From the NCBI GenBank assembly GCA_043818055.1, contig JBDRGF010000075.1:1733-65732 (forward strand): 64,000 nt of DNA, given 5' to 3'. The notes beneath the pieces were generated by a model. The model made no database searches and was not told the DNA's origin. It saw only the letters and a list, made by a program, of their open reading frames with translations. This document shows, piece by piece, positions 3,880-30,259 of the stretch. This DNA comes from Pseudomonadota bacterium. GTDB taxonomy: Bacteria; UBA10199; 2-02-FULL-44-16; JBDRGF01. How positions within the stretch are numbered: position 1 is the first letter of the stretch; each line of letters starts with the position of its first letter. The translations under genes were made by a program, and so were the position numbers.

Positions 3880-3919
3880 CGTTTCCCCCTTCAGGATGGT
3901 CTTCTATGACTAAAAAAAA

Positions 3920-3934
3920 GCAAGTTTTGTGCCA
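3920..3934 (-). promoter_or_regulatory. Sigma-54 (RpoN) -24/-12 promoter TGGCAC-N5-TTGCT, minus strand, driving the 3340..3879 gene
   Basis: The reverse complement of 3920-3934 reads TGGCACAAAACTTGC(T), an exact match to the consensus TGGCAC-N5-TTGCW. It sits about 40 nt upstream of the start codon at 3879. Confidence 0.6.
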
Positions 3935-8361: not shown

Positions 8362-9129
8362 TTAGCTTTTAATGTTTTTTCTCAGAACTTCAAAGGCAGA
8401 CAACTTTCCATAACAGACCAAAACGCAGGAGTCAGGAATTTTTGTGCTTGCCGGAGGAAGCGACATAAGCCCTTTAGAATCTTCGAGAGATAAGACCATG
8501 ATCTTGCGTTCTCTCAGGCCCGATTCCATCAACGTCTTTCCCGCCAGTGGGGAAAATTCATCGACGGTCAATTTTACAATACCATAGTTATTTTTTTGAT
8601 TTAAGAGCTGTTCAAGATTTGTATATTGCAGATCGGTTACCTGTGTCAGTTTTCTCTTTGCCCATTTATTCAAACCGTTGTTGAACCTTGCGAACCTTGA
8701 AAGGAAATTTATCAGGGCTACGACTCCTATTACGGTCAATATGGTGAATCCTGAGCTTGAAAATTTTCCCCCACCCAGAGATACGATGAATGTGGCGAGA
8801 ACAGAAACGATACCTGCGTTTCCGAGTATGATGAGATAGGTGATGATCTTTCGTCTCTTGGGATGATGGAGGATCATCTCAGATTCCCTAGTCGTAAAGC
8901 CTGTGCTGGAAAATGCTGAAAGCGCCTGAAACCGAGCGACATCCTGAGGCAGCCCCGTGAGCTCGAGGGCGATTCCCCCGAGTTTTACGATCGTGTATGA
9001 AAGAATTATAAAGAGGCCTAATAGTATTAAACTCATATTTCGCAGTCTAACATGATTTTGTTTTGAAAACAATGTGGATTCCAAAATCCTGGATCGGAAT
9101 CCGGGATTTTGGACAAAATTTTTCATCAT
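8362..9129 (-). CDS. Potassium-channel-like membrane protein with a C-terminal TrkA-C (RCK_C) domain
   Basis: Two TM helices flank a pore-like segment SAFSSTGFTT. The C-terminal part resembles TrkA-C. The likely true start is the internal Met at 9036 (MSLILLGLF...), which leaves the upstream palindromic sites non-coding. Confidence 0.55.
   Translation of the reverse strand: MMKNFVQNPGFRSRILESTLFSKQNHVRLRNMSLILLGLFIILSYTIVKLGGIALELTGLPQDVARFQALSAFSSTGFTTRESEMILHHPKRRKIITYLIILGNAGIVSVLATFIVSLGGGKFSSSGFTILTVIGVVALINFLSRFARFNNGLNKWAKRKLTQVTDLQYTNLEQLLNQKNNYGIVKLTVDEFSPLAGKTLMESGLRERKIMVLSLEDSKGLMSLPPASTKIPDSCVLVCYGKLSAFEVLRKNIKS
9080..9113. promoter_or_regulatory. Pair of 14-bp palindromic sites (consensus TCCAGGATTTTGGA) 20 bp apart, about 80-110 bp upstream of the sigma-54 promoter; putative enhancer-binding-protein UAS
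   Basis: tccaaaatcctgga (9080-9093) and tccgggattttgga (9100-9113) are near reverse complements of each other. The same motif pair recurs at 19561-19594 upstream of the second sigma-54 promoter. Confidence 0.5.
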
Positions 9130-9190: not shown

Positions 9191-9205
9191 TGGCACAATA
9201 ATTGC
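9191..9205 (+). promoter_or_regulatory. Sigma-54 promoter TGGCAC-AATAA-TTGCT about 60 nt upstream of precursor ORF A
   Basis: Exact match to the -24/-12 consensus TGGCAC-N5-TTGCW. It points into the precursor / radical-SAM operon. Confidence 0.7.
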
Positions 9206-9267
9206 TATAGAGATTTTCGAAGCTCGAGCAAAAACAAATTAACCAATAACAAAGAAAGGAGAGGAAA

Positions 9268-9360
9268 ATGGAAGCATTAAAAAAGGGCATTACCGAAATT
9301 GAAATCGTCACAGAAGGCTCTGAAGAAGAGATGCTTTGGGGAGTTGTTGGTGGTAAGTAA
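9268..9360 (+). CDS. Putative RiPP precursor peptide A (30 aa): MEALKKGITEIEIVTEGSEEEMLWGVVGGK
   Basis: Strong RBS AAAGGAGAGG 7 nt upstream. It is a tandem paralog of ORF B and lies immediately upstream of radical-SAM genes. Acidic leader-like region plus a Gly-rich C-terminus carrying Trp and Lys. Confidence 0.6.
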   Translation: MEALKKGITEIEIVTEGSEEEMLWGVVGGK

Positions 9361-9389: not shown

Positions 9390-9488
9390 ATGGAAACGTT
9401 AAGAAAAGACATCAATGAAATTGAAGTTGTCACAGAAGGTTCCGAAGAGGAGATGCTTTGGGGCGTTGGCGGCAGCAAGAACAATTAA
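9390..9488 (+). CDS. Putative RiPP precursor peptide B (32 aa): METLRKDINEIEVVTEGSEEEMLWGVGGSKNN
   Basis: RBS AAAGGAGAGA. Shares 21 of 30 residues with peptide A, including the invariant EIE(I/V)VTEGSEEEMLWGV stretch. Confidence 0.6.
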   Translation: METLRKDINEIEVVTEGSEEEMLWGVGGSKNN

Positions 9489-9502
9489 TGAATTAATCGT
9501 GT

Positions 9503-10894
9503 ATGGGGGAGTCAAACTTGCGACTCCCCTCATACATCATATCTACTATGAAAAAACTACTATTAAATAAAAATGTTATTATCAGGGATGAAAGATCATT
9601 TTGGTTGATGTTTAATCCTAATAATGGAGCTACTGTTAAATTGAACAATGATATTGGTAGTCATATCAAAAAGACACTAGATAATGATGAAAAAAAATTA
9701 AACATACCAAACATCAGCGAAAGAACGATCGATGTTTTAAACAAGGAAGGATTTCTAATAAAAGATGGATGTAATAAAGAAGTCTCCCTGAACAATCGCG
9801 TTCAAATCGGTGAAAGATGCAATTGGGTGGTTGGCCCTCAGATAGAATTCAGTTCAAAAATCTCTCCCGTAGGGTTGCTTTGGGAGATAACAAACATGTG
9901 TAATCTGAATTGTGTTTATTGTTTGCCCAATGCAAAGGAAAAAAGAAAAAACAACAAAGAGTTATCAGCTAATGAATTGAACACCATAGTCGACAATATC
10001 ATAAGGGCAAAGGTTTGCAGGGTGACGATATCGGGCGGTGAGGCGTTGCTTAGAAAAGATGATATGTTTCAGATAGCCAGAAAATTAAAATCTGCAAACA
10101 TAATGGTGGGAGCTATTTCGAATGGATTGATCATTGACGAAAAGATGGCAGATGAGATTAAAGAATTGGGAATTCTCATGGGCGTTAGTTTGGATGCTCC
10201 GAAGGGAAATATCAATTGTATAACAAGGGGAAAAGGCGTTTTTGAAAAGGCTCTGACTGCTATTAGGTTGTTGAAAAAAAGAAAAATTCCATTTAATGTG
10301 ATATCTACAGTTACCAATATCAACTTCGACTACCTTCCAGAATTATTTCTGTTGCTCAGGTCTATAGGAGTTACCAATATCGGCCTTCAGGATTTAAAAC
10401 CATCAAATCCGGATGTGTACGAAAAATTTAAACTTACAAGAGAACAAGAGCTAAAAATAAATGACATGTACGCATATCTTAAATCAACTTATCCGGAGAT
10501 ATGCTTTAATGATAACGAATTGAGAATCTTTTCAGGATTGGTTGATAAAAATGGATGCGAAGACAAAACGATAATGAGGTGTTTGGCAGGCACAGTTACT
10601 GGATATATCAATAGCGAAGGTGACATGTTTCCATGCACAAGTTTAAAAAGCTTAAAAATGGGGAATGCTGTTGAGGATGAAATTACACAGATGTGGCAGC
10701 ATTCAGAAGCAATGAAAAAGCTAAAGAAAATGAAAAATCAAACTACAGATGTATTAAGTGGTTGTGATCAAAGCTGTCCCATCAAGAAAACTTGCGATGG
10801 GGGCTGCCGAGGAGAAGCCTTTTATTTAAATGGAGATTGGAGTTCCTTGCATCCTAGATGCTTGAAGATATTAAGATATGAAAATAAAATTTAA
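9503..10894 (+). CDS. Radical SAM enzyme with C-terminal SPASM-like Cys cluster (peptide-modifying maturase candidate)
   Basis: CNLNCVYCLP is the CX3CX2C radical-SAM motif. A C-terminal CDQSCPIKKTCDGGCRGE auxiliary-cluster motif is present. The roughly 100-aa N-terminal region ahead of the core could be a precursor-binding (RRE-like) domain. An alternative start exists at 9548. Confidence 0.75.
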   Translation: MGESNLRLPSYIISTMKKLLLNKNVIIRDERSFWLMFNPNNGATVKLNNDIGSHIKKTLDNDEKKLNIPNISERTIDVLNKEGFLIKDGCNKEVSLNNRVQIGERCNWVVGPQIEFSSKISPVGLLWEITNMCNLNCVYCLPNAKEKRKNNKELSANELNTIVDNIIRAKVCRVTISGGEALLRKDDMFQIARKLKSANIMVGAISNGLIIDEKMADEIKELGILMGVSLDAPKGNINCITRGKGVFEKALTAIRLLKKRKIPFNVISTVTNINFDYLPELFLLLRSIGVTNIGLQDLKPSNPDVYEKFKLTREQELKINDMYAYLKSTYPEICFNDNELRIFSGLVDKNGCEDKTIMRCLAGTVTGYINSEGDMFPCTSLKSLKMGNAVEDEITQMWQHSEAMKKLKKMKNQTTDVLSGCDQSCPIKKTCDGGCRGEAFYLNGDWSSLHPRCLKILRYENKI

Positions 10895-11909
10895 CACATT
10901 TGATTTTCTGATCACAAATGCATGCGACAAAAGATGCTCGATATGCTGCACCAATCCGCATGCCATGAATGAAATCCAGCATTTAAAATTCAATGATTTT
11001 TGTGGGGTTGTCGATTGTATCGAAAAATACTTAGAAGAAAAAAACGAAACAGGCAACTGGGGGATTTCGGGGGGAGAACCCTTTATGTATAGTGATCATG
11101 AGGTGGGAAAAAATTATACGCTGGTTGATATTGTGGAATATCTTAGCACAAAGAAATTTATAAATAGTGTTTCCATCAGAACGTCAGGCTTCGATATAAA
11201 TTCAAAACAAAAATTGATTTTTGATGCATTAGAGAAACTCAGAGCACGCAAATTTATCACTTTTACTACTAGCTACAATTTATTTCAAAAAGGAGACATC
11301 AACGAAAGATTGAAGTGGATTTTACCAATATGGCTGGAATCTCAAGATAATCTTGAGATTCAAGTTATATATAATAAATCCAATTATCAAAAGACCTTGG
11401 ATGGCTTAAATCAGTTGCTAAAGACGGCAAATTTACTTGTCGATAAATCACAGACCATAAAAATCTTGCAGGAAAGATTGCACAAGTCAAATTATTATAG
11501 CTGGTCTATCGATGGAAAGAGAGTGGATATCAAAACATACCCGGCGTATTCTCATGGGAAAATTGATGGTGAAGAGTTTTTTGAGTTCAAGACAGCAAAA
11601 TGCGTTTCACTATCAAAAGCGGATTCAAACGCTGTCTTAGTCGTTAATTTTGATGGAACGCTACATCATTGTTGTAATCCGTATTATAGTTTTAAAAGAC
11701 GGTTTTTTTCACCAAAGATAGAAGGTCTTTTAAGTGGAGGAATAGCATTGGAAGATATCGCCAATTTGTTTTCAGATGGTATGGAAAGGGTTCTGCTTGA
11801 GCCAAAAATAAAATATAATCTCCAGAGAGATTATTGCGATATGTGTTCAGTACTACTCTTTGGACCTGTAATTACAGCAGAAGGAAAGTTTTGTGAAAAA
11901 CCAAATTGA
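10878..11909 (+). CDS. Radical SAM domain protein (second maturase candidate)
   Basis: ITNACDKRCSICCT has CX3CX2C spacing. Downstream Cys pairs HHCCNPYY and CDMCS are present. It overlaps the upstream gene by 17 nt. Confidence 0.65.
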   Translation: MKIKFNTFDFLITNACDKRCSICCTNPHAMNEIQHLKFNDFCGVVDCIEKYLEEKNETGNWGISGGEPFMYSDHEVGKNYTLVDIVEYLSTKKFINSVSIRTSGFDINSKQKLIFDALEKLRARKFITFTTSYNLFQKGDINERLKWILPIWLESQDNLEIQVIYNKSNYQKTLDGLNQLLKTANLLVDKSQTIKILQERLHKSNYYSWSIDGKRVDIKTYPAYSHGKIDGEEFFEFKTAKCVSLSKADSNAVLVVNFDGTLHHCCNPYYSFKRRFFSPKIEGLLSGGIALEDIANLFSDGMERVLLEPKIKYNLQRDYCDMCSVLLFGPVITAEGKFCEKPN

Positions 11910-13314
11910 ACAATTGATCAGCTATTTTCCTGGCGATTATGTCGAAGCCGCGGTTCAGCATAAGATGGTAAACTCATTCTCTTTGCTAAATGGAAAAGGA
12001 GATGGAACTGATTTCAGCGGGACAAAAACTTCTGCGAGAGTGACTTTGTACAGGGGTGGACAAAGGCTTCACCTGCCGATCAGAGAAATAAATGGCAGAA
12101 TTTCATTTTCGGATTTAAAAGATAAGATTTTTAATTCTCATTTCGATAATAAATTTGATGTATATTATAATAAAAACGGTTTTCAAAGGCTCCAAAAGAA
12201 ATCTAAGAATATACTCCGAGATAAAGAGGCTTTTTACTTAACAAAATGCAAGTTGCCTTTCAATTCAATCAACAACAACACAAAAAGAGAGATATTTGCA
12301 GATAGATTGATAAAATGTGATAGGTGTAAGCCATCCTTTGTCGATCTGATAATTTTTTATCAGGATTCTATGACAGAAACCTGCTATTATAATTCCAACA
12401 ATTTCTATCATAACAGAGTGGATAGCATGATTGAATTCTCCGGTTTTCTTAAATATGAGAGAAAACTATATCCAATTTTTTCGCACAACGAAATGGCAGG
12501 ATTGGAAGTTTTGGTTGATTATGTTTTTGGGAATGGATTTGAAGAAAAGATCGAGATGATAAAAGTATTTAAGAATGCATGGGCTACAAAAATAAAGTCG
12601 GGAATCTATAATGTGATCTTGGACCCAACGCTTGGTGCGGGCTTAATTCACGAAGCATTTGGTCATACTTGTGAGGCGGACATCTCATTCAGTAAAAATG
12701 TTAAAGGTCGAAGGGAGTTATTTGCCAAATTTAGAAATGAAGACATCACTATTGCCGATGATCCAACAATTGCTGAAAAGGGGTTTGTCTATATTGATGA
12801 CGAAGGGGTTATGGCTAAAAAAAAATATCTTGTTGAAAAGGGAGTTCTTAAATCCTGCATGCATTCAATATTTACAGCTACAAACAATAATTCAGAAGTT
12901 ATGGGAAATGGCAGAACATCTGATGCGAGCCAAATTCCAATTCCAAGGATGACAAACACTTATATCGAGCCAAAAAATATCAGTCTGACAGAAATGTTCA
13001 GTTCCCTTGACAATGGATTGTATCTCAAAGGTAACATTGGAGGTGGTAAAACAAACGGAAGAAAGTTTTCTTTAAATGTTGAACAAGGATACATTGTAAA
13101 AAAGGGGAAAATAACAGGGAGCCCTATCTCAAATCTTGTCATAAAGGGAGATTGTTTTGCTACGATCAATAATATTGTCAAAATAGGAAATGATTTAACA
13201 TTTGTGAAAGGTTTTGGAGGATGTTCAAAAAAAGGACAAAACAATCTTCCAGTGTCGGGTGGGTCTCCTCATCTTATGGTAAAAAATGTTTTTGTAACGC
13301 ATGTTGAAAGTTGA
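11893..13314 (+). CDS. TldD/PmbA-family metallopeptidase (candidate leader peptidase)
   Basis: LIHEAFGHTCEAD is the HExxxH-type TldD/PmbA signature. The Gly-rich C-terminal beta-region fits the family. GTG start overlaps the upstream gene. Confidence 0.7.
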   Translation: MKNQIEQLISYFPGDYVEAAVQHKMVNSFSLLNGKGDGTDFSGTKTSARVTLYRGGQRLHLPIREINGRISFSDLKDKIFNSHFDNKFDVYYNKNGFQRLQKKSKNILRDKEAFYLTKCKLPFNSINNNTKREIFADRLIKCDRCKPSFVDLIIFYQDSMTETCYYNSNNFYHNRVDSMIEFSGFLKYERKLYPIFSHNEMAGLEVLVDYVFGNGFEEKIEMIKVFKNAWATKIKSGIYNVILDPTLGAGLIHEAFGHTCEADISFSKNVKGRRELFAKFRNEDITIADDPTIAEKGFVYIDDEGVMAKKKYLVEKGVLKSCMHSIFTATNNNSEVMGNGRTSDASQIPIPRMTNTYIEPKNISLTEMFSSLDNGLYLKGNIGGGKTNGRKFSLNVEQGYIVKKGKITGSPISNLVIKGDCFATINNIVKIGNDLTFVKGFGGCSKKGQNNLPVSGGSPHLMVKNVFVTHVES

Positions 13315-13319
13315 TGTAA

Positions 13320-15293
13320 ATGAATATGAAGATACTCTTAGTCAATCCATATTGGTCCATAGTTTCTAAATATACTCCTTATAGTTTATTGCAATTGGGG
13401 TCATATATCAATGCAAAGACAATTCATAAAGCAGAAGTGTTAGATCTCAACATTGAATTACATGATGATATGTACAATCCTCACATTCTTATTGAAAAGG
13501 CTTGTAATTTGGTTTTGCAAAAGGATTTTGACATATTAGGGATTTCGGTCACCACTATAGACCTTCCGTTTACAGTCAGCTTTACCAAAAAATTTAACAA
13601 ATTGTGCAATAAGCCAGTTGTTTTAGGAGGGATTCATGCAACTCTTGCCCCAGATGAGTTATTTTCACTTTGTCCAGTTGATTACATTGTTCGTGGAGAG
13701 GGAGAGATAACTATTTCCAACCTTCTGGATAATTTGGATATAATGAACAATAAAAATCTTAAGGACATTATGGGTCTTTCTTATCGTGATGGGAGTGCGA
13801 TAGTTCACAATAATAACAGAAAAGTAATTTCCGATCTTTCTATCCTGCCTCTAGTGGATTATCAACTCATAAAACCATTGAAACATTATTTTATCAACAA
13901 ACTTAAAAAAAGTTATATCATGTGCAGCAGGGGATGTGGATACAATTGCAAGTTTTGTTCAGGCAGTCGAATATGGATGAAACAGCGCAGATTTCCCATT
14001 GATAGAATATTGAATGAAATCAAATTTCTAAAAGATTCCGGATCCGAGTTCATTTCCATCCAGGATGATTGTTTGACTATGAAGCGCTCCTGGTTTTTGG
14101 AGTTGGCTGAAGGCATTGGAAAAATAGGCATTAATTGGGGATGTTTGAGCAGGCTCGACCGCATTGATGAAGATATGCTTGATACAATGAAATCAAGCAG
14201 GTGCAAAGAGGTCTATTATGGCATAGAGTCGGGTAGCCCAAGGGTAAGAAAATTTTTGGAAAAAGGACTGATGTTTTCAAATGAAATAATTATAAAAAAA
14301 GTCAAAGACACTTTGAAAAGGGGAATTAATCCAATTTGCTCTTTTATGACAGGCATACCGACTGAAACTGAAGAAGAGTTCAATGAAACGGTTAATCTGG
14401 CCGTTGAAATTAAAAGGTGTGGTGCAAAACCTCAACTCAACCTGCTCACTCCACTTACTGGGACTAGACTCAAAGAAGAATACAAAGACAAAATTATTAA
14501 ATATGACAAGTGGGAGAAAATAGGTTTTGCAGACATTTTTGCAAAGGATCAACATTGGCTATTCAACTATCTTCTGGATGAGTTGAAGGATTATCTTCCG
14601 GACTATTATTTGTTCAAAAATCAAATGCCGCTTAATAGATTTGTTTCAAAGTATATGAAAGCCAGAAAAGAGCTTTCCCTCGAGAGCAAAAGCAACAAGA
14701 TGTTTTTTCTAGATAGAACAGAAGATGAGATATTGGTGCTCAATGGTGAAAGGTTGCGTGTCGATAAAAGCAGTTTTATAGAATTAAAACTCGAATGCGG
14801 CATGCTTGATGAGTACAGAGCTCAGCGCAATAAGCTTTCTTCTAATATCATTTTTATTCAATTTAAATATTCATCCTTCAAGTGCAATATTATTCCTGAA
14901 ACAAAGGAATTTTTAACAGAAATCTTAAAAGAAATTAATTCTGGGTATCGTATAATTATATTAAATCCCCTGCCGCGTTGTTCACTGTCGGATGAAGCGA
15001 CGAAACTGTTACGTGAGATAACGCTCCCTCATAATTGTCTTTGGTGTTCAAATCTTTTTTATAAATGTTTGGATAAGATAAAAATGTGCTCAGCCATAGG
15101 GGATGATGTTGAGCTCAAGGTTCCATTTGAACACATAGATAGCAGGAATAGAATATATCGCTATTTTGTAAAAGAAACTTTGGATAAAAATATAATCAGT
15201 GATAAAAAGTGTAGTGAATGTTCAATGCAACGAGATTGCACTATGCTTTGCATAGGTAGAGGTGATCGACAAAACAATGAGAGTTTTGCATGA
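13320..15293 (+). CDS. B12-binding-domain radical SAM protein (class B-like) with a Cys-rich C-terminal extension
   Basis: The N-terminus MKILLVNPYW...VLGGIHATL resembles a B12-binding domain. YIMCSRGCGYNCKFCSG is the radical-SAM cluster. The roughly 190-aa C-terminus has several CxxC motifs. Confidence 0.7.
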   Translation: MNMKILLVNPYWSIVSKYTPYSLLQLGSYINAKTIHKAEVLDLNIELHDDMYNPHILIEKACNLVLQKDFDILGISVTTIDLPFTVSFTKKFNKLCNKPVVLGGIHATLAPDELFSLCPVDYIVRGEGEITISNLLDNLDIMNNKNLKDIMGLSYRDGSAIVHNNNRKVISDLSILPLVDYQLIKPLKHYFINKLKKSYIMCSRGCGYNCKFCSGSRIWMKQRRFPIDRILNEIKFLKDSGSEFISIQDDCLTMKRSWFLELAEGIGKIGINWGCLSRLDRIDEDMLDTMKSSRCKEVYYGIESGSPRVRKFLEKGLMFSNEIIIKKVKDTLKRGINPICSFMTGIPTETEEEFNETVNLAVEIKRCGAKPQLNLLTPLTGTRLKEEYKDKIIKYDKWEKIGFADIFAKDQHWLFNYLLDELKDYLPDYYLFKNQMPLNRFVSKYMKARKELSLESKSNKMFFLDRTEDEILVLNGERLRVDKSSFIELKLECGMLDEYRAQRNKLSSNIIFIQFKYSSFKCNIIPETKEFLTEILKEINSGYRIIILNPLPRCSLSDEATKLLREITLPHNCLWCSNLFYKCLDKIKMCSAIGDDVELKVPFEHIDSRNRIYRYFVKETLDKNIISDKKCSECSMQRDCTMLCIGRGDRQNNESFA

Positions 15294-19578: not shown

Positions 19579-19594
19579 AATCCAGGATTCTGGA
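19561..19594. promoter_or_regulatory. Second pair of TCCAGGATTTTGGA-type palindromic sites, 20 bp apart, about 90-120 bp upstream of the second sigma-54 promoter
   Basis: tccagaattttgga (19561-19574) and tccaggattctgga (19581-19594) have the same consensus and the same spacing as the pair at 9080-9113. Confidence 0.5.
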
Positions 19595-19681: not shown

Positions 19682-19696
19682 TGGCACATGGATTGC
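19682..19696 (+). promoter_or_regulatory. Sigma-54 promoter TGGCAC-ATGGA-TTGCT upstream of the MFS / precursor C / methyltransferase operon
   Basis: Exact -24/-12 consensus. The flanks (cTTTGGCACa...aTTGCTATA) closely resemble the promoter at 9191. Confidence 0.7.
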
Positions 19697-19831
19697 TATA
19701 TATTTCAAAAAGTTAAGCAACAAGTTGTAATAGAGTGCGATAATGGTGGGGTAATATAAAGTTACGTAATGAAGTTTTTATATTCAAATTGAAATTGAAA
19801 TTTATTTTCTAATGAAACATGACTTACCGTA

Positions 19832-21076
19832 ATGATAATCAATGGTAAGAGGCATATGGTAAATAATAAAAACCTTTTACAGATATCCTACTTTATTAAT
19901 CAATTAGGTACTTATACAAGCTATCTTGCCATCATTGCAATAGCTCGGGAACACAATAATTCTATAAATTCTATTGCTATGGTATTGGGTGCTTCAGCGG
20001 CAGGGACAATGGTTGGGTGGCTTTTGACAATGAAATATCTTAAAAATGTGCACGCAAAACTTCTCCTTTCGTCATCGTTGATATTGTCAGGTTTGATGAT
20101 GGTATCAATTTTATGTCTGGTTAATTGGTGGCTAGTTGTTGCTGCTTTTTTTGTGTTAGGAATGTGTACCAATACCTACATGTCATCATTCTATACTTTA
20201 ATTCCCAGGATGATCAAAAAAACAGATGTGCCTAATATTAATCAGAACATTCAGATATTGTCTCAATTAGCCATAGTTATAGGTGCGATTTTGGGCGGCA
20301 TTTTGTTAGATCGGTTTGGGTTTAGGCTTCCGCTATTTGTTGATATTATTTCTTATTTATTAGTTGGGGTTGTTTATATGTGTCTTTCCCATAATAGATT
20401 TGTAATTTTATCAGCAGAGAAAGCGAATGATAATACGAAAGACCAAGAAGTGGTACGTCCAAAATGTCCATTTCAAAGGACATTGTTATTTTCTCCATTG
20501 GTGTTGGCTTTTCTGGTGGCTTTTGCTGCAGGTGCATATAATGTGATTGAAATTCCATTTTTCACCGATATTTTAGGGTTGCCCTATCGCTACATTGGAT
20601 TTTATTTTTCAATTTCGGTATTGGGAATTCCAGTTTTTCATGCTTTGGTACGTAAAAAGATGTTGCAAATGGAGTCGCTGCGATCCCTGTTTATCGGTAT
20701 TGCATTAGGTGGTTTGGTTTATTTAGTATGGGGTATGCAGAGCAGCTTATGGATAACTGGTCTTTTGTTAATTTTATTCAGCCTCTTTCAATTAGTTATA
20801 TTCACTTCAGTGAATAATTATCTACATGCCCATGTATTGGAAGATAATAAACTTCAAACGGTTTTTTCAACTTTGCAATTTGGGAGACGTGTGGCAGCTC
20901 TGCTGGGTAAATTAGCGATTCCCTTTATTGTAGGTTTTGCAGGAGAAAAATTTTCTTTTTCAGTGCTAGGTGTTATTATGATAATTGGATTGATTGTTGT
21001 TTTGATAACCAAAAGAGTGATAGAAGGAAGTATGAGTATTGTTGGAGATTTACAACAAAATGCCGCCGAATATTAA
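19832..21076 (+). CDS. MFS-type transporter (second)
   Basis: About 12 TM helices with typical MFS loop spacing. An alternative start exists at 19856. Confidence 0.6.
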   Translation: MIINGKRHMVNNKNLLQISYFINQLGTYTSYLAIIAIAREHNNSINSIAMVLGASAAGTMVGWLLTMKYLKNVHAKLLLSSSLILSGLMMVSILCLVNWWLVVAAFFVLGMCTNTYMSSFYTLIPRMIKKTDVPNINQNIQILSQLAIVIGAILGGILLDRFGFRLPLFVDIISYLLVGVVYMCLSHNRFVILSAEKANDNTKDQEVVRPKCPFQRTLLFSPLVLAFLVAFAAGAYNVIEIPFFTDILGLPYRYIGFYFSISVLGIPVFHALVRKKMLQMESLRSLFIGIALGGLVYLVWGMQSSLWITGLLLILFSLFQLVIFTSVNNYLHAHVLEDNKLQTVFSTLQFGRRVAALLGKLAIPFIVGFAGEKFSFSVLGVIMIIGLIVVLITKRVIEGSMSIVGDLQQNAAEY

Positions 21077-21095
21077 ATTAGAGAAAGGAGGAGGT

Positions 21096-21176
21096 ATGAA
21101 GCAAATGGATTTGCTTGGATTGGACAACATTGAAATTCAGCAAGAAGGATGTTGCCCTCAGGGAATTGACGGATAA
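21096..21176 (+). CDS. Putative RiPP precursor peptide C (26 aa): MKQMDLLGLDNIEIQQEGCCPQGIDG
   Basis: Strong RBS AAAGGAGGAGG 6 nt upstream. It shares the leader motif NIEIxxEG with peptides A and B. The CC-containing C-terminus sits directly upstream of the methyltransferase and the anSME-like radical SAM. Confidence 0.5.
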   Translation: MKQMDLLGLDNIEIQQEGCCPQGIDG

Positions 21177-21270
21177 TACATCAAGAATATTCATATTATT
21201 ATGAATCTATTATCCGGGGGATCTCATTGCTTTAGTCCCCCGGATAACATGATTCAAAAGGAGTGATGCG

Positions 21271-22281
21271 ATGAATCCTGTAAGTCAGATGAGAAGTTGG
21301 ATTAATTCTATGCACATTGCTAAGGCTGTTAATATTGGTGTTGAGGTGGGATTATTCGGTGTGATTGCTGAAATAAAATGTCCAACAACAGTTCAAGAAC
21401 TAGCCAGGCAAGCTTGCTGTGATCAGGGATATGTAGAATCCTGGATACATGTTATGCAAGCGGCAGGAATTATTGATGTTGATCAAAATGGTCATCTGTC
21501 GTTTGTTAGTGACTGGAAGGAAGCCCTTACAGATCGAGATAGTGATAAATATGTGCCGCCGATGATGGAATGTCATTTCGCTATTGCAGATACCTATCCG
21601 AGATTTGCAAAATTTTTTAGAAATGGAAATTGCATGCATTCAAATGAATTCAGTGAACCACTGCTGGTCGGTATTGCTGCGGATGCAGTGCGATTTGCAA
21701 ACTATTTTTTGCATGTAGCTGTGGATAAGATTCCAGATTTGAAGCTAAAACTGGAAGAAGGAATAGATGTTTTAGACGTGGGTTGTGGTGGCGGGCAATT
21801 TCTTTCAAAAATAGCAACACAATTTCCAAAGTCGCGCTATGTAGGTATCGACCCGTTAGATAAAGTTATTGATATGGCTAGGGAGGAGGCCAAACATTAT
21901 AAAGTAGAGAGTAGAGTAGATTTTATTGTCGGTTGCGGTTCCGAAATCAAAAAGGAATGTGCTGATTTAATAATTCTTAATGAAGTACCTCACGAAATGG
22001 ATGCTAAAGTAAGACAACCGGTGCTGGATGCTTGTTGTAAAGCATTGAAAAAGGATGGTCTTTTGTTTCTGGTTGATATTTTGGCCCCCGAAAATGCCGG
22101 GGATTATGTACGGCCTAATTTCTTATTATCATCACTAGTTCAGTTTTTTGAAAAACCATGGGGTTCAAAATTGTTGACATACTCAGAATTGAAAATCTTA
22201 ATTAGAAATGCAGGTTTTTCGGATTTGACACACTTGGTGTCAGCAGATGATGTAGTTGTCGCATATACAAAACCCATATAG
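21271..22281 (+). CDS. Class I SAM-dependent methyltransferase (O-methyltransferase-like, with N-terminal dimerisation/winged-helix-like region)
   Basis: IDVLDVGCGGGQF is the glycine-rich SAM-binding motif I. A downstream acidic motif LIILNEV is present. Confidence 0.75.
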   Translation: MNPVSQMRSWINSMHIAKAVNIGVEVGLFGVIAEIKCPTTVQELARQACCDQGYVESWIHVMQAAGIIDVDQNGHLSFVSDWKEALTDRDSDKYVPPMMECHFAIADTYPRFAKFFRNGNCMHSNEFSEPLLVGIAADAVRFANYFLHVAVDKIPDLKLKLEEGIDVLDVGCGGGQFLSKIATQFPKSRYVGIDPLDKVIDMAREEAKHYKVESRVDFIVGCGSEIKKECADLIILNEVPHEMDAKVRQPVLDACCKALKKDGLLFLVDILAPENAGDYVRPNFLLSSLVQFFEKPWGSKLLTYSELKILIRNAGFSDLTHLVSADDVVVAYTKPI

Positions 22282-22289
22282 ATATATTA

Positions 22290-23522
22290 ATGAAAAAAAA
22301 TTATCATAATATTTTAGTTGATGGAAAAAAAATTCGTTTTTATCCCGATGAAATGTTATTTTATAAAGGCAGTTCATTTCCGAAGGATGTGGATAAAGAT
22401 AGAAATGTGAGGCCATCCGTTTGTAAATCGGTAAAGATCGCAAACAGCAGGAAACTACAACTGGCGTTGACAATCACTAAGAGCTGCAACATGAAATGTA
22501 CATATTGCTATGATAAGAAAAATATGAATATTTCTTCTAATTCGAAAAATATGCATTTTAGTACACTATGCGATGCAGTGAATAAGTTTTGTAATAGCAG
22601 GATTGGTAATTACAATATACATTTCATAGGTGGAGAGCCGCTTTTATGTCTGGATTTAATCAAACAAACTGTAGATTATTGCAATAAGAAGGCTGCAATT
22701 GATAGCTCGGTATTTACATATAGTATTTCGACTAACGGTACAATAATTGACAAAGCCATAGCAAAGTATTTTTCCGAAAATAAAATTAAAATAAGATTAA
22801 CCTTTGATGGTGTAGAAGAATCTCAGAATGTCAATCGACCGATGCGCAATCGGGAGCAGAGCTTTTCTCATGTGGTACGATCGTTATCAAATCTAAGAAA
22901 TGCAAGTTGTGATTTTAGTGTTATATCTGTACTTCATCCCAATTTTCTTCATAAAATGCTTAAAGCTTTTGAAAATATAATTCAATACAATCCAAATGCG
23001 ATAAAATTTGTTCCTCTAATAAATATAGATGCGCTTGGATGTAAGTATGTCAGTGATCATAGTGTCATGTTTGCAGAATCTCTTCGGAATATCGCTAATC
23101 AATTGATCAGTAGAAAAGATGAAAAAACAATTATGAAAATTAAGAATATAAGCGTGTATTTGCCTTATATTCATAATCGTATAGCGAACATCAAGGGGTG
23201 TATTGCAGTTAATAAACAATCATATGCAGTGAATGTAGATGGTTCTGTGTATCCATGCTCAACCTTTGTTGGTATAGATACTCATCGTTTGGGGATGATA
23301 AATGATTATGAACTCAATCCTAATTCCATAAAATGTGAATCAATAACGACGAGATGTTTATCCTGCTGGGCACGAACATTATGTCCTGGAGTATGTGCTT
23401 ATACTGCCGATAATAATTCAGCATGCTCATCAGCAATGAATTGTGAGTTTATAAAAGGAGAGATTACTGTTGCTTTGGAAGTATATAGCAAGTTGTATCC
23501 TCATAAAATTAGAAGGGAGTGA
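22290..23522 (+). CDS. Radical SAM/SPASM protein of the anSME/thioether-forming maturase family
   Basis: LTITKSCNMKCTYCYD is the CX3CX2C motif. The C-terminal SPASM-like stretch is CESITTRCLSCWARTLCPGVCAY. Confidence 0.75.
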   Translation: MKKNYHNILVDGKKIRFYPDEMLFYKGSSFPKDVDKDRNVRPSVCKSVKIANSRKLQLALTITKSCNMKCTYCYDKKNMNISSNSKNMHFSTLCDAVNKFCNSRIGNYNIHFIGGEPLLCLDLIKQTVDYCNKKAAIDSSVFTYSISTNGTIIDKAIAKYFSENKIKIRLTFDGVEESQNVNRPMRNREQSFSHVVRSLSNLRNASCDFSVISVLHPNFLHKMLKAFENIIQYNPNAIKFVPLINIDALGCKYVSDHSVMFAESLRNIANQLISRKDEKTIMKIKNISVYLPYIHNRIANIKGCIAVNKQSYAVNVDGSVYPCSTFVGIDTHRLGMINDYELNPNSIKCESITTRCLSCWARTLCPGVCAYTADNNSACSSAMNCEFIKGEITVALEVYSKLYPHKIRRE

Positions 23523-23531
23523 CGAATTGCC

Positions 23532-24716
23532 ATGAATAACCTAATAAAAAAAGCATTTCAACTTTGCTGTTTTTTAATTATCATACTAATACCATTTTAT
23601 ATTCAAGCGGATCAAAATATTACAATAGCGCTGGTGAATAATTTTTCGGATTTTAGATCTCCATGTGGTGATCCTAAAGGAGAAAACTTTTTGAATGCTT
23701 TGAATTTAGCATTGGAAGATTTTTTAAAAGATCATAAAAAATATTCAGATCAAATAATACTTAGAAAATATGATTATGGTAATTCACCACTTAATACGGA
23801 ACGTATTACATTAGAAGCTGTTCGCTCCGATGCAGTAGCATTAATTGGATATCCATGCTCTAGTTTTGCTCTTCTTGCTGCTCCAATAGCTGAGGCGCAC
23901 AATGTTGCTATGATTACGCCATCGGCTACAATTGATTCATTAACCGAGAGTCGTGAATATGTATATCGCGCTTCATTTAGGGATGAAGATCAAGCTAAAG
24001 TTATGGCGGAATTTCTGGCAAATGATCTGGATAAGAAAAAGGCTGTAGTTATTGTTAATCAGAATTACCCATATTGCACTAATTTATCAGAGCAATTCCA
24101 GCATTATTTTAAAAAATATGGAGGAAAGATTGTAAAAGTGTTTAACACGCTTTCGAGCCAAAAAAGCTATAATAAAGAAGTAAATGAAATGAATCACTTA
24201 TCATATGATGTAGTTTTTATTCCTAATCATGAAATGGAGAGCGCTACTATGGTTAAAGAAATATATAATTTGAGTATGGAAACCACTGTTGCTGGTGGAG
24301 ACGGATGGGGGAATTTGTATGGGTATATTTTTCCTGCTATAGTTGGAAATAAAAAAATTGATGCGTATGCAATTGCTCATTGGAATCGTGATTCTGTTGA
24401 CACTAGTTCAAAAGAATTTCAGAAAAGGTATTATAATCGTTTTGGATTTTATCCAAACGATAATTCAGCATTAGCTTATGATGCTATGAGTCTGCTTTTA
24501 CATGCAATATCTAAGGCGAAAAAAATAAATAGGAAAGAAATCAACGCAGAGCTCAAATCAATCCGGTCTCATTTCGGTGTAACTGGGAGATTCTCTTATA
24601 ATCGAGGTAATGGAACGCCTTCAAAAAATGTTTATATAGTAAAATATCCTCAACCCAATTTGTCTCATGAAGGTGATCGTAGATTTGAGCATTACAAGAG
24701 TGTTATCGTAAAATAA
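23532..24716 (+). CDS. Periplasmic substrate-binding protein (type I PBP, Leu/Ile/Val-binding / ANF-receptor-like), secreted
   Basis: Has a signal peptide, and its architecture and length fit type I PBPs. It sits directly upstream of, and is translationally coupled to, the sensor kinase. Confidence 0.6.
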   Translation: MNNLIKKAFQLCCFLIIILIPFYIQADQNITIALVNNFSDFRSPCGDPKGENFLNALNLALEDFLKDHKKYSDQIILRKYDYGNSPLNTERITLEAVRSDAVALIGYPCSSFALLAAPIAEAHNVAMITPSATIDSLTESREYVYRASFRDEDQAKVMAEFLANDLDKKKAVVIVNQNYPYCTNLSEQFQHYFKKYGGKIVKVFNTLSSQKSYNKEVNEMNHLSYDVVFIPNHEMESATMVKEIYNLSMETTVAGGDGWGNLYGYIFPAIVGNKKIDAYAIAHWNRDSVDTSSKEFQKRYYNRFGFYPNDNSALAYDAMSLLLHAISKAKKINRKEINAELKSIRSHFGVTGRFSYNRGNGTPSKNVYIVKYPQPNLSHEGDRRFEHYKSVIVK

Positions 24717-24717
24717 T

Positions 24718-26499
24718 ATGCAGCTTAAATTGAGTCATAAAATAAACTTCTATTTTATTTTAATCATGCTTCTGGTGACGCTATGTTCTGTTGTATTTAT
24801 TTTTTACATGGCAAAAGTTGAACGCAGTAAGCAAATCGACATGGCGGTTTCTAAAATGAAAAATATAGCTGCTATTGAATCAGAAGATATTATTGCTCAA
24901 ATTCTTTTTCATTCATACTCGTCACTCGATCTAATAAGTAAAAAAATTCTAGAAGAAAACAAAAATATATTTGTTGATATTCGACTTAATGATTTTGTTA
25001 CAGGAAATGAATTGAAATATAAATATTGTATTCCTGATAATAATGGAGTGTGCTACAACAGGGATGATGATGTGCTTCAATTCGTATATTCCTTGAATTA
25101 TGGAGGTAAGGATTTAGGAAGCCTCATCATGGCACAACAGATGGGTTCTTTCACTATGCTGATTAAGCCATCAGTATCAGTAATTGTATTATTTGCATCC
25201 TTGGTAACAATAGCGATGCTCGGAATGTTTATGTTCTTTATCAGAAAAAATATCAGTCAGCCAATCAATATATGTATTCGATCATTTTCAGAAATTAAAT
25301 CTGGGAAGAGAAAAAATATTCCAAAAATGAATACTCGCGATATGAATATACTAGTTGAAAATATTAATTCACTTATGGAAGATTTAGGAATATTTCAAAA
25401 AATTGCTGAAAGAAATACACATTTAGCCGCCATAGGACAAATATCATCCCACGTCGCACACGATATGCGATCGCCGCTGTCTGTCATACAGGGATATCTG
25501 CGGGGAAATCAAAAAAACATGAAACTTCTCGAAGCAGCAAAGGGAAGCGCAAATAAACTGAATAACATGGCCGATGAACTATTGGATTATGCCAAGGCCT
25601 CGAAGATTGAGCCGGTTGCAACATCGTTAAAAAGCCTCGTTGAAACCACCGTCAGCAAAGAGGTTAAAAATATCGCCGATGAAAAGGGTGTAAAGCTTAT
25701 TTATGATGTGAGGGATGATGTTGTTGCTAAGATAGATCATTACCGAATGGAACGTGTCCTGACCAACCTCATCACGAACGCCGTTCAGGCGATTGATGCG
25801 GAATCAGGTGAGGTAAAAGTTTCTGTTAAATCAGACAACGAAAATCTCAAAATAACAGTTACAGATAATGGCAGGGGAATAAGCAAAGAAGATCAGAAAA
25901 AGATTTTCGATAGCTTTTTCACAAAGGGAAAGATGAGAGGGACAGGCCTTGGGCTCTCATATTGCAAAAACGTCATAGAGGCACATGGGGGCGCTATTGC
26001 AGTAGAGAGTGAAGTTGGAAGAGGAACAGAGTTTTCGATTAATATTCCATCTTGTATTACAACACCACATGCCACATGCTACATACCACATGCTGTCCCT
26101 AGCCATCAGACATCAGCGGTCAGCGGTCAGCCGACAAAAGGCGAGTTGGACTCGGATAACGACATCCTCGTCGTCGATGATGATGTGGGAATAATTTTAA
26201 TATGGTGTGGCCTGATAGAGAAGAAAACAGGAAAACCGCCCATAACCGCAAAGAGCCCTGAAGAGATGATGAAAGCCAAAATCGATTACAGCAGGGTATC
26301 AAAGGCGATTGTTGACTATCAATATGAGGGAAGTAAGCTCACCGGCCTCGATGTCGTACAATTTTTGAAAGAGAAGGGCGTGCAGGTGATCCACATGTGC
26401 ACGGGGATGTATCACGATGAAGAATTGCAATCGCAGGCGAGAAAGTTAGGCGTTGCTTCGATCATACCTAAGCCTATTAGCGCCGATACGAATATTTGA
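24718..26499 (+). CDS. Sensor histidine kinase (two TM helices, periplasmic loop, HisKA + HATPase_c) with a degenerate C-terminal receiver-like extension
   Basis: H-box SHVAHDMRSPLSVIQGY. N/G boxes ITNAVQAID, TDNGRGISKEDQKKIFDSFFT, GTGLGLSY. The C-terminus DILVVDDDVGI...IVDYQ resembles a receiver domain. Confidence 0.8.
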   Translation: MQLKLSHKINFYFILIMLLVTLCSVVFIFYMAKVERSKQIDMAVSKMKNIAAIESEDIIAQILFHSYSSLDLISKKILEENKNIFVDIRLNDFVTGNELKYKYCIPDNNGVCYNRDDDVLQFVYSLNYGGKDLGSLIMAQQMGSFTMLIKPSVSVIVLFASLVTIAMLGMFMFFIRKNISQPINICIRSFSEIKSGKRKNIPKMNTRDMNILVENINSLMEDLGIFQKIAERNTHLAAIGQISSHVAHDMRSPLSVIQGYLRGNQKNMKLLEAAKGSANKLNNMADELLDYAKASKIEPVATSLKSLVETTVSKEVKNIADEKGVKLIYDVRDDVVAKIDHYRMERVLTNLITNAVQAIDAESGEVKVSVKSDNENLKITVTDNGRGISKEDQKKIFDSFFTKGKMRGTGLGLSYCKNVIEAHGGAIAVESEVGRGTEFSINIPSCITTPHATCYIPHAVPSHQTSAVSGQPTKGELDSDNDILVVDDDVGIILIWCGLIEKKTGKPPITAKSPEEMMKAKIDYSRVSKAIVDYQYEGSKLTGLDVVQFLKEKGVQVIHMCTGMYHDEELQSQARKLGVASIIPKPISADTNI

Positions 26500-27929: not shown

Positions 27930-28027
27930 ATTGATTATCTTTTAGTTTATCGCCACTTTTCGTTGCATTCCCTTTTACAGTTAGCTAAATGGAATTGATC
28001 ACAATTTCAAAACATAGGAGGGCATCG

Positions 28028-28762
28028 ATGACTAACACCTTTGATCATCTCTTTCTGATGGGGCGGCCTGCTGCTGGAAAATCCGAATTCATAGATTTCA
28101 TGAAAAAAGTTACAGACGAGGAGAGGGCGAAGAAATTTCATATCGGCCATTTTACCGAGGTCGATGATTTCGTCTGGCTTTGGGAGAAGTTCATGGAGGA
28201 TCACCTCTGGGAGGAGGTCGGTTGTGAGAGGCTCTATTCATTCAATGAGGATGACAACCCGGGACTTAAGCCCGACAAGGGAAAGCTCTTCGATATGATG
28301 ATAGCCAAGATCGATCATATAGTTCGTGATAATTTTTTATCGAAGGCCGATTTTTATTCTCAAAATACCCTGATAATCGAGTTCGCGAGGGGGATGGAAA
28401 CGGGATATAAACATTCATTCGATCTTATCAAAAGTGATCTTTGGGATAAAGCCGCGATTTTGTATGTTGAGGTCGATGGTGCGGAATCATGGAAGAGGAA
28501 CGTCGCAAGGTACGAGGAGAAGCTCAAACATTCGATATTAGCCCATATGGTTCCGAAAAAGACCTTCGATGCCTTTTATTCGCATGATGACTGGCACGAT
28601 CTTACTGAGAATAAGAGGGAGGGTTATTTAAACCTGAAGGGAATTGAAGTCCCATTTGTTACGATGAACAACTGTCCGGAGTCGACAGATCCGGCTGTGT
28701 TAAGCCCCCGTTACGGTCAAGCGCTCGATAACCTCATGGAATTGAAGGAGAAACTAAAATAA
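28028..28762 (+). CDS. P-loop NTPase/kinase-like protein, paralog 1 of 3
   Basis: Walker A LMGRPAAGKSEF. Conserved C-terminus VPFVTMNN.PESTDP..L.PRYG. RBS AGGAGGG lies ahead of ATG 28028 (the track ORF begins at 27989). Confidence 0.6.
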   Translation: MTNTFDHLFLMGRPAAGKSEFIDFMKKVTDEERAKKFHIGHFTEVDDFVWLWEKFMEDHLWEEVGCERLYSFNEDDNPGLKPDKGKLFDMMIAKIDHIVRDNFLSKADFYSQNTLIIEFARGMETGYKHSFDLIKSDLWDKAAILYVEVDGAESWKRNVARYEEKLKHSILAHMVPKKTFDAFYSHDDWHDLTENKREGYLNLKGIEVPFVTMNNCPESTDPAVLSPRYGQALDNLMELKEKLK

Positions 28763-28785
28763 TCAGCTGAAGGGAGTCTTTCGGG

Positions 28786-29508
28786 ATGAAATATTTTAAA
28801 AATCTTTTTGTTTTAGGCCGTCCTGCCTGTGGAAAATCAGAATTTCTGGATTTTATGCGAAATAAGATCTCGGATGATGAGAGGCAGGATATCTATCACA
28901 TAGGAAAAATGAAGGTGATGGATGATTTCGTGTGGCTCTGGGAAAAATTCGAAGACGACGATATCTGGGAAAAGGTCACGGGGAAAAGATTTCATTCCAA
29001 CAGAGATGGACATCTATATAATGCGAGGAGCGCGATTCTATATAATTTTTTGACCGAGCGTTTGAGCGAAGAGGTAAAAAAGAATTTAAAAGATCAGGAG
29101 TTTTATAATTCAGGGACGTTGTTGATCGAATTCTCAAGGGGAGGAGAATGTTCTTATAAGGATGCCCTCAATCGCTTTGACCCCGAGGTGCTTAAAAGTT
29201 CTGCGATATTGTATATGGAGGTGGATGGGGCCGAGTCGTGGAGGAGAAATGAGGCGCGTTATCAGGAAAAGTTAAAACACTCGATTCTGGCCCACAAAGT
29301 TCCGAGAGAGACCTTCGATACATTTTATTCCTTTGATGACTGGGATGCGCTCACTGGAAAAAAACGCGATGGTGAGCTTGATCTTCAGGGGGTCAGAGTT
29401 CCATTTGTTACGATGAATAACACCCCCGAATCAACTGATCCAGGTGTTTTAGCGCCAAGATATGGCGATGCCCTGAACCGCCTGATGGATGTTTTCAACA
29501 AGAGATAA
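28786..29508 (+). CDS. P-loop NTPase/kinase-like protein, paralog 2 of 3
   Basis: Walker A LGRPACGKSEF. About 50% identical to paralogs 1 and 3 and collinear with them along its whole length. Confidence 0.6.
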   Translation: MKYFKNLFVLGRPACGKSEFLDFMRNKISDDERQDIYHIGKMKVMDDFVWLWEKFEDDDIWEKVTGKRFHSNRDGHLYNARSAILYNFLTERLSEEVKKNLKDQEFYNSGTLLIEFSRGGECSYKDALNRFDPEVLKSSAILYMEVDGAESWRRNEARYQEKLKHSILAHKVPRETFDTFYSFDDWDALTGKKRDGELDLQGVRVPFVTMNNTPESTDPGVLAPRYGDALNRLMDVFNKR

Positions 29509-29530
29509 TCAACGAAAGGAAATTTCAACC

Positions 29531-30259
29531 ATGAACCATTTTAAAAATCTCTTCGTTCTTGGAAAACCCGCCTGCGGCAAATCTGAATTGTTGGATTTTA
29601 TGACGAATAAGATCAGCTCAGAGGAGAGGTCTAAGATCTATCATATCGGAGAGATGAAAGTTATGGATGATTTTGTCTGGCTTTGGCAAAAATTTATCGA
29701 GGATAATCTCTGGGAGCGTTTGATCGGAAAGAGATTTCATTCAAAAAGGAGCGGAAATTTGCACATAGTCGATGACGCTTCTCTATATGATTTCATGATT
29801 GAAAAGCTGAATATTGAGGCGAAAAAACTTCTTAAGAATGATGGTTTTTATGACGAACACACCCTCTTGATAGAGTTTGCCCGTGGAGGAGAGAAGCCCT
29901 ATCTTCCTGCCATGAACCGATTCGATTCGGAAGTGCTGAAGTCATCTGTGATACTCTATGTAGATGTCTCCGCTGAGGAGTCGAGGCGAAGGAATGAAGC
30001 TCGTTATCAGGAGAAGCTTAAACACTCTGTGCTATCACATAAATGTCCCGATGAGGATATGGAGCGCTTTTATCAGTCAGATGACTGGGCCGCGATAACA
30101 GGAGGTAAGGTTGATGGCTTCTTGAAACTTAATGGTGTCGATGTTCCTTTTGTCACCATGAACAATGAACCTGAGAGTAAAGATCCTGTCATATTAGGCC
30201 CAAGATATAAAAAGGCATTGGATCTCCTCTATGAGCTTTATCAAAAAAATACCCTCTGA
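29531..30259 (+). CDS. P-loop NTPase/kinase-like protein, paralog 3 of 3
   Basis: Walker A LGKPACGKSEL, same family. RBS AAAGGA lies ahead of ATG 29531 (the track ORF begins at 29489). Confidence 0.6.
   Translation: MNHFKNLFVLGKPACGKSELLDFMTNKISSEERSKIYHIGEMKVMDDFVWLWQKFIEDNLWERLIGKRFHSKRSGNLHIVDDASLYDFMIEKLNIEAKKLLKNDGFYDEHTLLIEFARGGEKPYLPAMNRFDSEVLKSSVILYVDVSAEESRRRNEARYQEKLKHSVLSHKCPDEDMERFYQSDDWAAITGGKVDGFLKLNGVDVPFVTMNNEPESKDPVILGPRYKKALDLLYELYQKNTL

Follow-up and report, generated by a model that had tools for sequence, protein, structure and literature searches.

Does the short open reading frame (ORF) that precedes a methyltransferase gene and a radical-SAM gene in this DNA encode a real peptide, and is that peptide the substrate of the neighboring enzymes? 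The sequence-only reading of the window (the whole stretch of DNA that was analyzed, 64,000 nt) had described the ORF, peptide C, as a precursor-like gene with a strong ribosome-binding site. It had tied the ORF to the methyltransferase and radical-SAM pair and had suggested that it shares a recognition motif with two further peptides, A and B. Its coordinates, its translation and its strong ribosome-binding site were found as first described. The ORF lies within the 194-nt gap between an MFS gene and the methyltransferase gene, in the following arrangement.

19832-21076, + strand: MFS transporter (Pfam MFS_1, E 7.6e-28)
21085-21094, + strand: Shine-Dalgarno sequence AAGGAGGAGG
21096-21176, + strand: precursor peptide gene C, 26 aa, ATG at 21096 and TAA at 21174-21176, translation MKQMDLLGLDNIEIQQEGCCPQGIDG
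21210-21247, + strand: GC-rich hairpin of 13 bp with no T-tract (MFE -34.1 kcal/mol; z -3.7 and z -4.6 in two computations)
21271-22281, + strand: class I SAM-dependent methyltransferase with an N-terminal winged-helix (Pfam Methyltransf_31/25/12/2 and HTH_65)
22290-23522, + strand: radical SAM/SPASM peptide maturase, with CX3CX2C at CNMKCTYC and a seven-Cys SPASM motif
23532-24716, + strand: secreted periplasmic binding protein of the Leu/Ile/Val type (Pfam Peripla_BP_6, E 1.1e-36)
24718-26499, + strand: hybrid histidine kinase (HisKA, HATPase, receiver) with two TM segments around a loop of ~115 residues
26496-27929, + strand: sigma-54-dependent response regulator (receiver, AAA+ Sigma54_activat, Fis HTH)

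The sequence GGAGGAGG at 21087-21094 places its first GGAGG 4 nt from the ATG of peptide C. Within the peptide, a leader block DLLGLDNIEI spans residues 5-14 (21108-21137) and a putative core CCPQGIDG spans residues 19-26 (21150-21173). The core contains Cys20-X3-Ile24, both residues being invariant as described below, followed by Asp25.

In order to determine whether the ORF is conserved, relatives of the cassette were collected. A word-indexed homologue search recovered the query alone at E<=1e-20 and only generic radical-SAM proteins (21-25% identity) at 1e-3. Since the cassette family was not recovered in this way, an exhaustive HMMER search with the 22290 radical-SAM enzyme against 1.84 billion representative proteins was needed. 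It returned four close relatives (206-248 bits, 32-38% identity), the next match scoring 142 bits. Three of the four are full length and one, P0011, is N-terminally truncated. All four genes stand in the same order of methyltransferase, radical SAM, Peripla_BP_6 periplasmic binding protein and hybrid histidine kinase, and this order is thus kept in all five cassettes. Other searches added no member: a plasmid tblastn search gave at best <=29% identity; in a metagenome scan that used the radical-SAM alignment, the generic HxxGGEP pattern dominated, and among the matches listed, 19-34% identical, there was no cassette member; and a scan of a genome collection that used the methyltransferase alignment yielded nothing but paralogues, from Myxococcales and Desulfobacteraceae MAGs, with neither radical SAM nor peptide. 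A literature search found no description of the cassette.

Upstream DNA was readable for three of the four relatives' loci (L002, L003 and L004; the P0011 contig was left out). Each of the three carries a 25-aa ORF upstream of the methyltransferase gene at a distance of about 88-107 nt, compared with 94 nt in the window.

L002, 8803-8880: orthologous peptide MNKDTLCLDDINLEGCDLCPREISD
L003, 2374-2451: orthologous peptide MIENQDVLGLEDVEIEPSDCVKGIE, identical to that at 262-339 of L095
L004, 913-990: orthologous peptide MKKKKDVLGLENIEVESDSCSQGIH

Conservation of the ORF upstream of orthologous methyltransferase/radical-SAM pairs had been named beforehand as the check on the proposal, with absence or a frameshift in syntenic loci as the outcome that would speak against it. 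The ORF was present in all three additional readable loci and was neither missing nor frameshifted in any of them, so that the proposed association of ORF C with this gene pair extends to every cassette that could be read. In each of the four peptide genes, AAGGAGG precedes the ATG by 4-7 nt. The four peptides have in common a leader block, D-x-L-G/C-L-[ED]-[ND]-[IV]-[EN]-[IVL], and a C-terminal motif, C-x-[QKR]-[GE]-I-x(1-2); the two motifs occur together solely in these ORFs when 753 kb of sequence, comprising the window and the fetched loci, is read in six frames. Pairwise differences within the conserved blocks are distributed 34/12/54 over codon positions 1/2/3, a pattern that, judged from these alignments, is that of a translated gene. 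The conservation rests on four distinct peptide sequences only. All four readable cassettes present what is expected of a RiPP precursor: a small gene beside a maturase, conserved together with the enzyme, with a leader and a short core.

The alignment also settles details of the peptide itself. The conserved Cys is residue 19-20 in each of the four peptides, 5-6 residues from the C-terminus, and the residue at Cys+4 is an invariant Ile; besides this Ile, the Cys is the single invariant core residue. Position Cys+5 is Asp in the window, a C-terminal Glu in L003, a C-terminal His with its free carboxylate in L004 and Ser in L002; the L002 peptide has Glu at Cys+3 and a C-terminal Asp at Cys+6. 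The Cys-Cys motif pointed out in the sequence-only reading is present in the window peptide but is not a feature of the family, in which only Cys20 is conserved: the first Cys of the pair occurs in the window peptide only, and the second Cys of the L002 peptide is at a different position. Met4 was considered as an alternative start for peptide C and rejected. Met1 fits better, with a Shine-Dalgarno spacing of 4 nt as in L003, and the leader block is preceded by 3-5 residues in all orthologues. A sulfatase-type C-x-P-x-R reading of ‘CCPQG’ was likewise dropped because the motif is not conserved.

We then compared the 22290 enzyme with characterized radical-SAM proteins. Its cluster motif CNMKCTYC occupies residues 66-73 (Pfam Radical_SAM E 5.8e-17), and CX3CX2C is kept in the four full-length family members; the truncated P0011 is without that region. 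None of the SPASM cysteines (C304-X13-G318-X4-C323, C356-X2-C359-X5-C365-X3-C369 and C385) varies in the family alignment. The Pfam SPASM model fell short of the E 0.01 threshold for the enzyme, although the NCBIfam alignments do span the SPASM region. Among NCBIfam models, with which the enzyme aligns end to end, the best match is PapB with 178.6 bits (NF047865, cut-off 340), in an alignment of 314 residues that takes in both the radical-SAM and the SPASM regions. It is followed by the nif11 maturase (151), anSME (TIGR03942; 118.4 against a cut-off of 349), QhpD (115), CcpM (115) and the SCIFF maturase (TIGR03974; 110.6 against a cut-off of 425), all of these scores being below cut-off. A profile of the enzyme family searched against the PDB matched CteB (5wgg) with 153 bits and anSME with 117 bits. 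An AlphaFold model of the enzyme, built from five sequences only, had a pLDDT of 72.5; compared with solved folds by Foldseek, it matched anSME with TM 0.69-0.77, the best by E-value, and CteB with TM 0.73. The full seven-Cys set and the anSME fold match bear out the earlier description of the enzyme as anSME-like with a SPASM domain. In the model the N-terminal domain of ~50 residues consists of three strands, predicted with low confidence, and a disordered linker after them; as modeled, it is not a full recognition element, the helices of the standard one being absent. By sequence, the enzyme is anSME/CteB/PapB-like but falls outside every curated family. Since its scores are far below the curated cut-offs, the chemistry cannot be transferred with confidence; given that the best profile matches are of the anSME/CteB/PapB kind yet meet no curated family, the Cys thioether chemistry suggested for the 22290 enzyme is plausible.

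The methyltransferase is ~50% identical to its cassette orthologues. Its closest solved structures are TnmJ and Rv2258c, and its N-terminus is a winged helix like that of Rv2258c. A weak match to ApyS (39 bits) was also noted. The MFS protein encoded on the other side of peptide C is a possible exporter. An exporter was rejected as a conserved part of the cassette, since the MFS genes of the window and of L002 are not orthologous.

The binding protein and the kinase, which were overlooked in the first reading, belong to the conserved cassette, and the peptide is linked with both in all cassettes. The binding protein matches branched-chain amino-acid binding proteins in the PDB and is 50-53% identical to its cassette orthologues; no ABC permease or ATPase genes adjoin its gene. 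The kinase, whose topology was read from its sequence, is in the same position in L002, L003, L004 and the P0011 contig. A fragment of a sigma-54 activator lies just upstream of the peptide gene in L004. The sigma-54 regulator of the window is immediately followed by three tandem paralogues (27989-30259; 257, 240 and 256 aa). They contain the P-loop sequence GRPA(A/C)GKSE and match nothing in Pfam.

Loci of a different composition came from a profile search based on the methyltransferase. The binding protein and the kinase come directly after the methyltransferase (40-41% identical) in L090, L092 and L093, where both the radical-SAM gene and a peptide ORF are absent. In L006, from a Desulfobacteraceae MAG, the same upstream arrangement is seen, the contig stopping ~1 kb past the methyltransferase. 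We looked for a small ORF in these four methyltransferase loci without radical SAM and found none; a conserved non-coding leader was found instead. This highly conserved region of ~400 nt precedes the methyltransferase at 7515-8000 of L006, 3630-3996 of L090, 670-1110 of L092 and 945-1414 of L093, and has a TTGACA-type promoter and internal inverted repeats, with no Rfam match and no conserved ORF. No Rfam family matched the window or any of eight loci searched. Two further loci were recorded. L091, a sister cassette, has a divergent radical-SAM gene (28% identity). Between that gene and the methyltransferase gene, at 1387-1560, is an ORF of 57 aa preceded by a good ribosome-binding site; the encoded peptide is basic at its N-terminus, continues with a hydrophobic stretch and finishes in a lipobox-like ...LIAFGCSGKGA, with Cys likewise five residues away from the C-terminus. 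L005, from a Myxococcales MAG, has two tandem methyltransferase paralogues (1889-3894) with no radical SAM, binding protein or peptide nearby.

Across the loci recovered here, the peptide was present solely where a P0001-type radical-SAM enzyme was present, and this is the strongest argument that peptide C is the substrate of that enzyme. The loci that have methyltransferase, binding protein and kinase without the peptide indicate that this trio is the older unit. Because the trio exists without the peptide, an action of the methyltransferase on the peptide becomes less certain, and the ligand of the sensor may differ.

The promoter regions of both peptide operons were examined as well.

9080-9113: double palindrome before the A/B operon
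9191-9206, + strand: sigma-54 promoter of the A/B operon, before peptides A and B
9268-9360, + strand: peptide A
9390-9488, + strand: peptide B
19579-19589, not stranded: palindrome AATCCAGGATT, candidate enhancer site, ~100 nt upstream of the 19682 promoter
19682-19697, + strand: sigma-54 (-24/-12) promoter TGGCACATGGATTGCT, in the gap that precedes the MFS gene

Perfect TGGCAC-N5-TTGCW sequences occur three times in the window, compared with 0.04 expected (9191 on the + strand, 19682 on the + strand and 3919 on the - strand). The third, at 3919-3934 on the - strand, precedes an uncharacterized 179-aa ORF (3340-3879, - strand) and is without the palindrome. The promoter at 19682, 1.4 kb upstream of ORF C, is likely the start of the operon that contains it. 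The palindrome AATCCNGGAT, i.e. AATCCnGGAT(T), has seven matches in the window compared with 1.2 expected, and five of the seven precede the two + strand sigma-54 promoters by 85-105 nt. L002 has the palindrome AAATCCGGATTT at 8597-8608, ~100 nt upstream of a sigma-54-like promoter, TGGCAT-N5-TTGCT, that itself lies 101 nt before the peptide ATG; L003 has TGGCAT-N5-GTGCA 117 nt before the peptide ATG; before the peptide gene of L004 no sigma-54 promoter was found. Both peptide operons thus have sigma-54 promoters with a common upstream palindrome, a feature that the first reading had also overlooked. We infer that the palindrome acts as an enhancer-binding site. The arrangement fits a single activator, probably the cassette's own regulator, that would drive both peptide operons. 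The shared promoters and palindrome, taken together with the sigma-54 regulator of the cassette, suggest an autoregulated peptide-signal circuit.

The motif common to the three peptides was tested against chance. Over the six frames of the window, IE[IV]xxEG has exactly three occurrences, one in each of peptides A, B and C, compared with ~0.1 in shuffled sequence; the shared IEIxxEG-type motif is therefore real within the window. The interpretation placed on it, that one recognition element serves two modification routes, is weak, since the leader common to the whole C family reads D-x-LGL-[ED][ND][IV]E[IV], the ‘EG’ is absent in two of the three orthologues of peptide C (L003 and L004), and neither peptides nor enzymes of the A/B type are encoded in the available flanks, up to 10 kb on each side, of the orthologous cassettes. 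The A/B radical-SAM enzyme and the 22290 enzyme also have different N-terminal domains. Common export or leader removal, or leader exchange within the genome, would explain the motif no less readily than would a recognition shared by the modifying enzymes.

Several features of the A/B operon itself may be recorded here. The C-terminal sequences of peptides A and B are EEEMLWGVVGGK and EEEMLWGVGGSKNN, and their Trp...Lys core may be a cross-link substrate. The radical SAM/SPASM enzyme encoded beside them (9503-10894) has an N-terminal extension of ~120 residues and weak matches, below cut-off, to MftC (135 bits) and to the Trp-Lys cross-linker WgkB (118 bits). Its true start is probably the ATG at 9545, because a hairpin at 9499-9537 overlaps the listed start. 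Further along are a lone TldD/PmbA-like metalloprotease (11893-13314), a possible leader peptidase, and a B12-binding radical-SAM enzyme (13320-15293) whose best match is the RiPP enzyme ApyD (157 bits, below cut-off).

The reading of peptide C as a precursor acted on by the adjacent enzymes has good support; the thioether chemistry, the role of the methyltransferase, the shared leader and the signaling function are put forward as hypotheses. On balance, we believe that ORF C is probably a genuine, translated RiPP precursor that operates in the following scheme, a view we hold with moderate confidence. The radical-SAM enzyme would bind the leader and abstract a hydrogen from a residue 4-5 positions after Cys20; much as PapB, CteB or QhpD do, it would then close a single small thioether ring between the sulfur of Cys20 and residue 24 or 25. 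The acceptor is ambiguous, as the Ile at Cys+4 is invariant and the position of the carboxylate varies. The methyltransferase would add a methyl group, for instance at the other thiol, at a carboxylate or at the newly exposed N-terminus. The leader would then be cleaved, no leader peptidase being conserved in the cassette, and a modified peptide of ~7-8 residues would be exported. More speculatively, this product could be sensed in the periplasm by the Leu/Ile/Val-type binding protein and the hybrid kinase, and the signal could pass through the sigma-54 response regulator to the promoters at 19682 (its own operon) and 9191 (A/B). The result would be an autoinducer-like loop. Taken to its full extent, the scheme would make the five-gene cassette a self-contained peptide quorum-sensing module of Gram-negative anaerobes, with the modified peptide of ~7-8 residues as an autoinducer that also switches on the otherwise unrelated A/B RiPP operon; the related A/B and C leaders would then reflect shared export or leader removal. 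This extension is tentative, and we regard it as doubtful.

Other explanations of the ORF were weighed against the same data. The simplest, that it is a chance ORF in an intergenic region, might be entertained for a gene of 26 codons only that gene callers left unannotated and that matches no protein family; the comparative data have already refuted it, as four independent loci share its length, position, ribosome-binding site, motifs and coding substitution pattern, and we give it practically no weight. The hairpin that follows the ORF raises the prospect of a regulatory leader peptide (uORF), whose translation together with the hairpin would control read-through into the methyltransferase and radical-SAM genes. 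A strong hairpin lies between ORF and methyltransferase in three of the four loci (in L003 with z -2.9 and in L004 with z -5.2, in addition to the window), and is likely an attenuator or an mRNA-stabilizing element; a very similar one (z -5.7) follows peptide B. However, the window hairpin is 33 nt past the stop codon, has no T-tract and forms no alternative pairing with the ORF, and L002 has none. The amino-acid sequence is moreover conserved along the entire peptide with synonymous drift, and the ORF is found only where the radical-SAM gene is present, so that we consider a purely regulatory ORF very improbable.

Two explanations accept the peptide as real and differ in its chemistry or its role. 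It could be a true substrate of the enzyme that undergoes a reaction other than Cys thioether formation, such as formylglycine formation as in anSME, epimerization, a C-C or C-O cross-link, or formation of a thio-heterocycle. The enzyme belongs to no curated family and its fold is as close to anSME as to CteB, SPASM enzymes catalyze many reactions (PMC8326336), and the residue at Cys+4 is an invariant Ile, though aliphatic acceptors are unusual for PapB-type enzymes. Yet the best profile matches (PapB, nif11 maturase, QhpD, CcpM and SCIFF maturase) are all Cys-thioether formers, an invariant Cys with a nearby carboxylate fits PapB-type logic, and the four peptides do not have the sulfatase motif C-x-P/A-x-R in common; we think a different chemistry unlikely. 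It is also conceivable, though in our judgment rather doubtful, that methyltransferase, binding protein and kinase form an independent sensor of an amino-acid-like cue into which peptide and radical SAM were inserted, in which case the peptide would be a regulated output, e.g. an antimicrobial, rather than the ligand, and the methyltransferase might not modify it. The resemblance of the binding protein to Leu/Ile/Val-binding proteins and the occurrence of the trio without peptide or radical SAM in L090, L092 and L093 (and in part in L006) point in this direction. Against it, the gene order is fixed in five cassettes, and the methyltransferase and binding protein are ~50% identical within peptide-bearing cassettes compared with 28-41% to loci without a P0001-type gene, which argues that these two proteins diverged together with the peptide and the enzyme.

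Under the favored reading, peptide C is probably the precursor of a small modified peptide and perhaps a signal. Radical-SAM-modified peptides are already well-known natural products; the precursor and enzyme family described here is one without a curated model, with five members, including that of the window, among 1.84 billion representative proteins. To judge from its genes, the cassette represents a rare family in which very short precursors and a dedicated SPASM enzyme are placed within a methyltransferase/binding-protein/kinase module, and such a constant association with a methyltransferase and with a periplasmic binding protein/kinase pair is unusual. Should the sensor ligand be the product of the cassette, the cassette would be a compact, transplantable peptide-signaling circuit in Gram-negative, probably anaerobic, bacteria, in which peptide quorum sensing is barely documented. 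The short precursor (25-26 aa with one conserved Cys) should make the chemistry easy to probe, and the enzyme could possibly be useful for C-terminal macrocyclization of peptides.

By analogy, the cassette may work like a Cys-thioether RiPP pathway of the PapB/CteB/QhpD type, yet it scores below all family thresholds. The closest known system by curated match is PapA/PapB, which makes the ranthipeptide freyrasin in Paenibacillus polymyxa. PapB joins the Cys sulfur to the carbon beside a downstream Asp/Glu carboxylate, or to the C-terminal residue (PMC12373016), and works even without a leader (PMC12715619). As in that system, the peptides here have one invariant Cys near the C-terminus and a carboxylate at or near Cys+5. 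PapA, however, is a longer peptide with six CX3D repeats; in this family the repeated Cys-X3-Asp pattern of PapB substrates is replaced by one conserved Cys in a C-X4-D/E/C-terminus arrangement with an invariant Ile at +4, an Asp, Glu or C-terminal carboxylate being found at Cys+5 in three of the four peptides. PapB also has a standard recognition element, of which a deletion construct (delta-RRE) has been reported (PMC12715619); the enzymes here have ~50 N-terminal residues only. To our knowledge, the freyrasin cluster has no methyltransferase, binding protein or kinase.

CteA/CteB and the SCIFF maturases of Clostridia are the next comparison, CteB being the closest solved structure by sequence profile and, like the enzyme proposed here, acting on a short precursor, in which it forms Cys thioethers. 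SCIFF peptides have been linked to quorum sensing, according to the passage of PMC8326336 that cites Chen et al. 2020. Their precursors have six Cys in ~45 residues, compared with 1-2 Cys in 25-26 residues here, and their operons are without a dedicated binding-protein/kinase pair. The anSMEs have the same seven-Cys SPASM layout and give the best fold match; their substrate is a sulfatase, whereas here it would be a 26-aa peptide in whose family C/S-x-P/A-x-R is not conserved. QhpC/QhpD and NxxcA/NxxcB also rely on radical SAM/SPASM enzymes, whose products carry one or a few thioethers between Cys and a residue close by (Asp/Glu/Asn); they differ from the cassette in scores below cut-off, other substrates and other gene contexts. 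On the sensor side, LuxP/LuxQ and TorT/TorS couple a periplasmic binding protein to a membrane hybrid kinase, and their ligands are small molecules made by unrelated enzymes. The cassette appears to resemble them in that a secreted binding protein is encoded beside a hybrid kinase with a periplasmic loop and with no ABC genes. Unlike in those systems, the neighboring genes here encode a ribosomal peptide route.
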